Assembly (NCBI GenBank): GCA_913061315.1
Contig: CAJXUC010000006.1
Span: forward strand, 9,078-73,077
Direction of reading: 5' to 3'
From: an uncultured Gammaproteobacteria bacterium
Lineage (GTDB): Bacteria > Pseudomonadota > Gammaproteobacteria > GCA-001735895
Length of the DNA: 64,000 nucleotides
A program made the translations under genes and the position numbers. Below the pieces are notes generated by a model. That model did no database searches and was not told the DNA's origin. It saw only the letters and a list, made by a program, of their open reading frames with translations. Shown in pieces: positions 11,028-12,020 of this stretch (position 1 is its first letter; every line of letters starts with the position of its first letter).

Positions 11028-11699
11028 TTAGGTTTTTGCCCGATCTGAATATAACTCATCATTAGTTTCAGTCAAACGACCAGCCAAAAATTTTAACAGA
11101 ACAGCATAGGCTGGCAGAAATAGCAGTAGACTGATAATAAGTTTGAACGCGTAATCAACCAGTGCAATCTCTACCCAATTCTCAGCCATAAAAGCATCTG
11201 GGCTTTGATAAAAAGCCATGGAGAAAAACAAAAGCGTATCCAGCGCATTACCCAGTACGGTAGAAGCAGCCGGAGCAACCCACCAGCGCCGAGTGCGCCG
11301 AAGTCGATTGAAGACTTGCACATCCAGAAATTGCCCAAATACATAAGCAACGAAACTTGCCAATGCAATACGTCCCACAAAAAGATTAAATTCAGCCAAT
11401 TGGCTCAGACCTTGAAAAGCGCCTTCATAAAATAACACCGAAAGTACATAGGACAGAAATAAAGCCGGTATCATTGCACGCAGAATAATACCTCGTGCCA
11501 TTGGCGCACCAAAAATGCGTACCGTCAAATCTGTAGCGAGAAAAATAAATGGAAAACTAAAAGCCCCCCAAGTGGAATGGAAGCCAAACAAAGTAAATGG
11601 TAGTTGAACCAGATAATTACTAGCAGCAATAATCAGAAGATGACTTGCAACCAAAAAAGTGAGTGCTTTATTAGATTGAACTGTGGTGAAAACTTTCAT
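11028..11699 (-). CDS. yhhQ: Queuosine precursor (preQ0/preQ1) transporter, YhhQ/QPTR (DUF165) family
   Basis: Strong similarity to E. coli YhhQ from MKVFTTVQ (SNYLVQLP, GFHSTWGAFSFPFIFLATDLTVRIFGAP, RLRRTRRWW); true start is the second Met (11699), with the first ATG (11717) lying inside the riboswitch. Confidence 0.75.
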   Translation of the reverse strand: MKVFTTVQSNKALTFLVASHLLIIAASNYLVQLPFTLFGFHSTWGAFSFPFIFLATDLTVRIFGAPMARGIILRAMIPALFLSYVLSVLFYEGAFQGLSQLAEFNLFVGRIALASFVAYVFGQFLDVQVFNRLRRTRRWWVAPAASTVLGNALDTLLFFSMAFYQSPDAFMAENWVEIALVDYAFKLIISLLLFLPAYAVLLKFLAGRLTETNDELYSDRAKT

Positions 11700-11705
11700 A
11701 TGTAA

Positions 11706-11738
11706 CCTTTTTGTCATTGGGGGCGAGGGAACCCAAAT
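11706..11738 (-). promoter_or_regulatory. Candidate preQ1-I riboswitch in the yhhQ leader
   Basis: RNA 5'-UUGGG UUCCCUCGCC CCCAA UGACAAAAAGG-3': 5-bp P1, 10-nt loop starting UUC and ending in the ligand-reading C, A-rich tail running into the SD, which is the same architecture as the T. tengcongensis (CUGGG-UCGCAGUAAC-CCCAG-UUAACAAAACAAGG) and B. subtilis aptamers; loop CCU can pair with the SD AGG (P2). Confidence 0.45.
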
Positions 11739-12020
11739 TATAATAATATTAAGTGGCTTTAGTGATGCCGCGGGTGATTCTATTCTAAGTTATGATTTTG
11801 TAAAGCACAGAGTGATATTTGGATATTTTTTGCTCCATAAAAATTAAATAAAATAGGTATCTAGATCTTATATTCATTTTTTACACACTACTAATTGAAA
11901 TAGGTCTGAAAGAATTATTGCAACGTAACACATGAGGGCCAAACGCCAGCTTTGCAAAACTTAAACTGTTTTCTATTCTATGGGTCTATTATGTATGTAT
12001 TACATTGCTTCATCTAAAAA

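Follow-up and report, generated by a model that had tools for sequence, protein, structure and literature searches.

The leader of yhhQ on the minus strand of the window, by which we mean the whole 64-kb stretch of DNA analyzed here, very probably contains a class I preQ1 riboswitch of type III at positions 11736-11706 that controls the translation of YhhQ. A class I preQ1 element had been proposed at this site in an earlier note. Comparison with the validated E. coli riboswitch supports the proposal, and the subtype, which was left unspecified at that time, is type III. The element is of an already described kind and is biologically ordinary, a further example of a well-studied type of riboswitch located before its usual gene; little new is learned about the biology. 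In terms of annotation, its recognition sets the start of yhhQ at 11699 and explains the conserved leader. Type III preQ1-I riboswitches are said to have been first described by McCown et al. in 2014. The type III consensus used here is that given in PMC10622847 and PMC11625349.

Architecture of the yhhQ leader

The minus strand from 11736 to 11706 reads UUGGG-UUCCCUCGCC-CCCAA-UGACAAAAAGG, and it is followed by UUACAU and by the AUG at 11699-11697. This is exactly the sequence that had been claimed. The 5-bp hairpin, the 10-nt loop starting with UUC, the unpaired C before the 3′ strand and the A-rich tail running into the Shine-Dalgarno (SD) sequence, all described previously, are present. The tail, UGACAAAAAGG, spans 11716-11706, and the 35-nt RNA of the element is UUUGGGUUCCCUCGCCCCCAAUGACAAAAAGGUU. 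The parts of the leader and the gene that follows it are listed below.

11706-11736, minus strand: putative complete preQ1-I type III riboswitch, a 31-nt H-type pseudoknot (UUGGGUUCCCUCGCCCCCAAUGACAAAAAGG) with aptamer and expression platform in one, assigned with the R1 model and by the match to the E. coli 36-mer
11732-11736, minus strand: 5′ strand of P1, UUGGG (U11736, U11735, G11734, G11733, G11732), pairing with 11717-11721
11722-11731, minus strand: 10-nt pyrimidine-rich loop, UUCCCUCGCC, the residues of which were mapped onto the E. coli element
U11731 and U11730, minus strand: loop residues, predicted ligand and floor contacts by equivalence to E. coli U7 and U8 (wild-type numbering)
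C11729, minus strand: loop residue between U11730 and the anti-SD
C11728-C11727-U11726, minus strand: anti-SD, i.e., the 5′ strand of P2
C11725-G11724-C11723, minus strand: L2, one nt longer than the E. coli L2
C11722, minus strand: predicted preQ1 specificity cytosine, equivalent to E. coli C15, unpaired and immediately preceding the 3′ strand of P1
11717-11721, minus strand: 3′ strand of P1, CCCAA (C11721, C11720, C11719, A11718, A11717), holding the A of the apparently spurious ATG 11717-11715
11710-11716, minus strand: L3 linker, UGACAAA, the 3′ adenines of which correspond to those docking in the P1 minor groove of the E. coli element
11706-11709, minus strand: Shine-Dalgarno sequence AAGG, which doubles as the P2 3′ strand; A11709 corresponds to E. 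coli A33, a ligand reader
11028-11699, minus strand: coding sequence of yhhQ, for a preQ0/preQ1 transporter of 223 aa according to the NF008406 equivalog and homology to E. coli YhhQ

The complementarity of P2, as read from the sequence, comprises U11726-A11708, C11727-G11707 and C11728-G11706. Thus, the loop CCU can pair with the SD AGG in the window as had been suggested, and the same pairs are seen in the crystal structure of the E. coli element (PMC10622847).

When the leader was compared with the type III consensus, the following features were found: a short P1 with covariation, UU followed by the UUCCCU loop, an unpaired specificity C, an A-rich L3 ending in AAGG with P2 pairing, a position in the leader of yhhQ in Pseudomonadota, and a significant covariance model score. 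The ′AC′ of the 9-nt loop, i.e., the adenine right before the specificity cytosine in the published consensus (PMC11625349), is absent, and the window has G-C-C in a loop of 10 nt.

The gene downstream is of the expected kind. The window YhhQ matched Pfam PF02592 (Vut_1) and reached 352 bits, at a cutoff of 252, with the NCBIfam equivalog NF008406 (7-cyano-7-deazaguanine/7-aminomethyl-7-deazaguanine transporter). The earlier remark that the YhhQ family occurs downstream of preQ1 riboswitches is in line with the literature, in which the association with yhhQ is the hallmark of type III preQ1-I riboswitches in Pseudomonadota (PMC10622847, PMC11625349).

Comparison with the E. coli riboswitch and other preQ1 systems

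The wild-type E. coli yhhQ 36-mer was given by Schroeder et al. (2023) as AUUGGGUUCCCUCACCCCAAUGGUUAAUCAAAAAGG (Table S1, PMC10622847). This element binds preQ1 with a KD of ~58 nM without the need for a protein, and it represses a reporter 6.1-fold in vivo (PMC10622847). Its crystal structure is an H-type pseudoknot with the pairs U11-A28, C10-G29 and C9-G30 (crystal numbering), in which the first SD adenine reads the ligand and the 3′ adenines of L3 dock in the P1 minor groove (PMC10622847). Each of the substitutions U7C, C15U, C16U and A33C abolishes regulation by the E. coli element (PMC10622847), and U7C lowers its affinity for preQ1 35,000-fold. The equivalents of these four essential residues are present in the window as U11731, C11722, C11721 and A11709. 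The specificity cytosine C15 is 97% conserved. Binding of preQ1 and ligand-dependent repression have been shown for the representatives from E. coli, Shigella dysenteriae and Enterobacter cloacae.

The E. coli element shares with the window the GGGUUCCCUC segment (GGG-UUCCCUC), the specificity C, CCCAA, AAAAAGG, a 6-nt spacing to the start codon, the yhhQ gene itself and the complementarity of the loop CCU to the SD AGG. The two elements differ in the loop, which has 10 nt in the window, with C-G-C as L2 before the specificity C, and 9 nt in E. coli, with C-A at this place. P1 has 5 bp in the window, where the sixth position is U-U, whereas it has 6 bp in E. coli. The distance from the end of P1 (counted as 5 bp) to GG is 9 nt in the window and 14 nt in E. 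coli, so that L3 is 5 nt shorter; the length of 9 nt is also that of the engineered E. coli 30-mer construct used for crystallisation.

Nearly all complete E. coli genomes (5414 of 5426) carry the E. coli element, 6 nt ahead of the yhhQ ATG. The copy at L081:901-936, which corresponds to 4426036-4426071 of E. coli O157:H7 NZ_AP018488.1, is the crystallised riboswitch. Among the eight E. coli records listed, none has an annotated feature under the riboswitch.

The window element was also compared with the other preQ1 systems. Type II elements, exemplified by those of Thermoanaerobacter tengcongensis and Bacillus subtilis queC, which are detected by RF00522, share with it the H-type pseudoknot, the 5-bp P1, the A-rich L3 and, as ligand readers, the first loop U together with the C that precedes the 3′ strand of P1. 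In contrast to them, the window has a pyrimidine-rich loop (UUCCCUC) instead of a mixed one, contains the full AAGG SD inside P2 and the pocket, and is tied to yhhQ, whereas type II is tied to queT or queCDEF. The window also falls below the RF00522 listing limit (gathering score 39), while classical examples reach 50-51 bits. The type I element of Carnobacterium antarcticum has the same UU after the P1 5′ strand and the same overall fold, but its loop is three nt longer and it binds two stacked ligands (PMC10622847, PMC11625349); the loop in the window is too short for this type. The preQ1-II (RF01054) and preQ1-III (RF02680) riboswitches recognise the same ligand and likewise work by occluding the SD, and they have unrelated, larger HLout pseudoknot folds. 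When the motif string was looked for in the full text of the literature, all matches were primer sequences unrelated to it.

Conservation of the leader among yhhQ loci

A YhhQ protein scan, with one genome taken per species, yielded 80 loci from gamma- and betaproteobacteria, whose sources include Vibrionaceae, Marinomonas, Proteus, Symbiopectobacterium, Lonepinella, Thiothrix, Alcaligenaceae and Comamonadaceae. In 77 of them, the motif immediately precedes the start codon (Vibrionaceae, Marinomonas, Proteus, Thiothrix, Pasteurellaceae, Alcaligenaceae and Comamonadaceae). Hairpin and A-rich tail are kept in orthologous leaders, as the earlier note required of a genuine riboswitch. The conserved pattern is GGG-[U/C]UCCCU-N2-3-C-CCC, then a variable A-rich linker and AAAGG; in most loci, AAAGG lies 5-8 nt ahead of the start codon. 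Outside the motif, the leaders cannot be aligned between families. UUCCCU and the final C were found in 77/80 loci, one of these 77 (L044) having CUCCCU, and the specificity C was present in 79/79 leaders.

The 35-nt segment of the window is identical in the leaders of Grimontia marina and several Enterovibrio. The aptamer is the same in these genera although their YhhQ proteins are only 66-70% identical to that of the window. The eight closest relatives (L001-L008), gammaproteobacterial metagenome-assembled genomes (MAGs) with YhhQ 79-87% identical to that of the window, have CCCAUU in place of the CCCAAU of the window, which makes their fifth P1 pair a U-U mismatch.

Base pairing in P1 was evaluated with several alignments. 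In the MAFFT alignment of 45 leaders (A1), the 1-nt insertion in L2 and the length differences in L3 were misplaced, so that the 3′ strand of P1 lost its register. A1 was excluded for this reason, and the pairs were counted in the gap-free sub-alignment A2, in the model-fitted alignment A3 and by a strict, ungapped, motif-anchored count. The strict count, performed on 34 distinct sequences, showed that the three G-C pairs of P1 (GGG/CCC) are invariant. The fourth pair is UA in 31 sequences, AU in two and CG in one, and it is thus paired in all of them. At the fifth, AU (16), UA (12) and CG (3) occur, and three sequences are unpaired. The sixth pair is mostly absent across the leaders. In A3, which as a model-fitted alignment leans towards structure, 100% of the cells were paired and none of 500 shuffles reached the observed covariation score. 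Both strands of P2 are invariant, and covariation consequently speaks neither for nor against this helix.

One leader carries a natural substitution at the first loop position. The locus of Proteus penneri ATCC 33519 (L044:1460-1494) reads GGGCUCCC, with C at this place. The same change (U7C) ruins the E. coli riboswitch. The switch of P. penneri may therefore be blind to the ligand; a sequencing error at this base is the other possibility.

The type III motif is missing from three of the yhhQ homologues. In Ignatzschineria (L047:1436-1480), a classical preQ1-I element of the RF00522 type is located directly upstream of the gene (51.4 bits). In Snodgrassella (L050:870-914), a classical preQ1-I element (49.9 bits) was found ~590 nt upstream, perhaps ahead of an upstream gene in an operon. 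Rappaport israeli (L056) has neither the type III motif nor a classical preQ1-I element. The first two cases indicate that different preQ1-I subtypes serve the same transporter family.

Motif statistics, covariance model and Rfam searches

A single copy of the core GGGYTCCCTNNNCCC is present in the window, free of mismatches, and about 0.14 occurrences are expected even with one mismatch allowed. A covariance model, R1, was built from 21 gap-free leaders of Proteus and Alcaligenaceae, all with a 9-nt loop; the window and its clade were excluded from it. The model was run against the 64 kb on both strands with the filters off. The only significant match was at 11704-11738 on the minus strand, with 21.3 bits and an E-value of 1.3e-4. 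The next best one scored 10.7 bits and was merely SD-like (CAAAAAGG). For the validated E. coli element, also absent from the model, R1 gave 36.7 bits.

The search of the whole window with Rfam 15 at gathering thresholds returned no match, including preQ1-II (RF01054) and preQ1-III (RF02680). In the region 11600-11900, no preQ1 family matched at E ≤ 10 (the gathering score of RF00522 is 39 bits). The earlier note had proposed that the lack of an RF00522 match should count against the riboswitch. This lack was confirmed in the window, but the test itself turned out to be invalid, since the validated E. coli type III element, used as a positive control, gave no family matches at E ≤ 10 either. 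The silence of RF00522 on the window is thus uninformative, and the missing match was rejected as evidence against the riboswitch. In a further control with 16 yhhQ loci of other genomes, RF00522 found only the classical elements of Ignatzschineria (51.4 bits) and Snodgrassella (49.9 bits), and the 14 motif-bearing loci had no RF00522 match at the gathering threshold. The public RNA family library has a gap here: RF00522 of Rfam 15 is blind to type III, and this release offers no public model for the type. The lack of an Rfam hit upstream of yhhQ in Proteobacteria does not mean, then, that a preQ1 riboswitch is absent.

The only local Rfam match was a weak one to SAM-SAH (RF01727) at 11831-11866 on the minus strand, which reached 11.1 bits (gathering score 40) with an E-value of 5.2. 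It is almost certainly due to chance in AT-rich intergenic sequence, and it was rejected.

The 10-nt loop and alternative explanations

The 10-nt loop is not restricted to the window. It was found in 43 of 79 leaders, or in 12 of the 34 distinct sequences, mostly as N-C-C, and its carriers (Vibrionaceae, the clade of the window, Thiothrix and Comamonadaceae) belong to both proteobacterial classes. We regard it as a tolerated sub-variant within type III, because its position, its gene and all ligand-contacting residues are otherwise homologous. A13 of the E. coli element (crystal numbering) makes a contact to U11 at the ceiling of the pocket and is the proposed gatekeeper (PMC10622847). With G-C in place of this adenine, affinity or selectivity could differ from those of E. 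coli. As the proposed gatekeeper is replaced and L2 is longer, the gating may be different as well. It nevertheless appears unlikely that the 10-nt-loop form (N-C-C), as found in the window, Vibrionaceae, Thiothrix and Comamonadaceae, constitutes a functionally distinct type III sub-variant. If it did, its gating or its preference for preQ0 or preQ1 might differ from that of the E. coli switch.

A rival explanation holds that the window element is a type III homologue whose behaviour was changed by the extra L2 nucleotide (GCC for AC); it might bind more weakly, differ in its selectivity for preQ0 and preQ1, or be a constitutively open leader that is blind to the ligand. Besides the loss of the gatekeeper contact, the slipped P1 register permitted by the extra C points in this direction, as it is the minimum free energy (MFE) fold of the window leader, and so do the scores of R1, which was built on 9-nt-loop leaders only and gave 20-43 bits for leaders with a 10-nt loop vs. 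27-62 bits for those with a 9-nt loop. However, the 43 leaders with the longer loop strictly keep the other key residues, which indicates purifying selection on a working switch. Moreover, the type II aptamer of T. tengcongensis likewise has a 10-nt loop and a 3-nt L2, consistent with the residue numbers in the literature. We consider a changed behaviour improbable, and favor a type III riboswitch that works in the usual way.

The remaining two explanations deny that a metabolite-sensing RNA is present, and both are extremely improbable. A chance hairpin beside an ordinary A-rich SD region, with no regulatory function, would fit the tiny size of the element, the missing Rfam match and the MFE folding of the leader, which was no better than that of shuffled sequences (z = +0.96). 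Such a non-significant value is expected, since a tiny ligand-dependent pseudoknot is beyond the model of the folding program, and MFE folding of a single sequence was not used as evidence for or against the riboswitch. A chance origin is refuted by the presence of a near-identical motif in 77/80 orthologous loci with otherwise unalignable flanks, and the covariation in P1, the R1 match (E = 1.3e-4 over 64 kb) and the agreement with an element of known crystal structure argue against it as well. High conservation of the primary sequence would also be typical of a DNA operator or a protein-binding RNA site, but the outer positions of P1 vary on both strands with pairing kept, which is a signature of RNA structure. 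In addition, the motif is specific to one strand and keeps its place with respect to the SD and the start codon, and preQ1 binding by the E. coli homologue is direct and needs no protein (PMC10622847).

Proposed mechanism

For the type III riboswitch of the window, we infer by homology that it binds the ligand, that it folds into the pseudoknot, and in which direction and manner it regulates yhhQ. When no ligand is bound, the SD AAGG (11709-11706) would be free and yhhQ would be translated from the AUG at 11699. When preQ1 is abundant, it would bind atop the 5-bp P1 and stack on G11732-C11721, where it would be read by C11722 (through its Watson-Crick face), U11731 and A11709. The adenines of L3 are predicted to dock in the minor groove of P1, and C11728-C11727-U11726 would pair with G11706-G11707-A11708, so that the H-type pseudoknot closes and the whole SD is buried. 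This burial should reduce the binding of the 30S subunit and the production of YhhQ, i.e., it would act as feedback repression of the import and salvage of queuosine precursors. A scan of the leader for terminators revealed no intrinsic terminator between the aptamer and the start codon, which fits translational control and leaves transcription attenuation unsupported. Two terminator-like sites at 11550-11583 fall within the coding sequence and do not exceed the number expected by chance, and they were rejected.

Start codon, promoter and surroundings of yhhQ

The sequence supports the AUG at 11699-11697 as the true start of yhhQ, and the in-frame ATG at 11717-11715, which falls within the P1 3′ strand, is probably spurious, as the earlier note had also held. 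Three observations argue for this choice. E. coli YhhQ, which is 66% identical to the window protein, aligns its annotated Met1 to the Met1 encoded at 11699; the spacing between the SD and this AUG is 6 nt (UUACAU); and the closest relatives, which have CCCAUU there, possess no ATG at the position of 11717.

Upstream of yhhQ, on the same strand, lie genes for a pirin and a DoxX protein, and a LysR regulator gene is divergent. These neighbours have no relation to queuosine. The tRNA scan of the window found none.

Two further features were noted upstream of the aptamer.

11777-11804, minus strand: candidate sigma-70 promoter of yhhQ, with the -35 hexamer TTTACA (11804-11799), a 16-nt spacer and the -10 hexamer TAGAAT (11782-11777)
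11753-11771, minus strand: weak 5′ leader hairpin with a GGC/GCC core (-3.6 kcal/mol), between the promoter and the aptamer and outside the latter

The candidate promoter has 10 of 12 consensus matches and is located ~40 nt upstream of the aptamer. Alignment A4 shows that L001-L008, the eight closest relatives, keep both hexamers, and transcription would start downstream of this TTTACA/TAGAAT promoter. One of these relatives, L001 (JBLHID010000012.1, labelled MAG: Polaribacter sp.), has a yhhQ locus 87% identical to that of the window. It is placed in a Bacteroidota bin, yet its leader and promoter are of the gammaproteobacterial type, and the contig is probably mis-binned.

The leader hairpin was also observed at the same position in L001:1430-1450, L005:1429-1450 and L020:1427-1454, with other stem sequences and with energies from -8.4 to -12.2 kcal/mol. 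It is therefore strong in relatives and degenerate in the window. The transcript probably begins with this hairpin, which may be a 5′ stem-loop that stabilises the mRNA.
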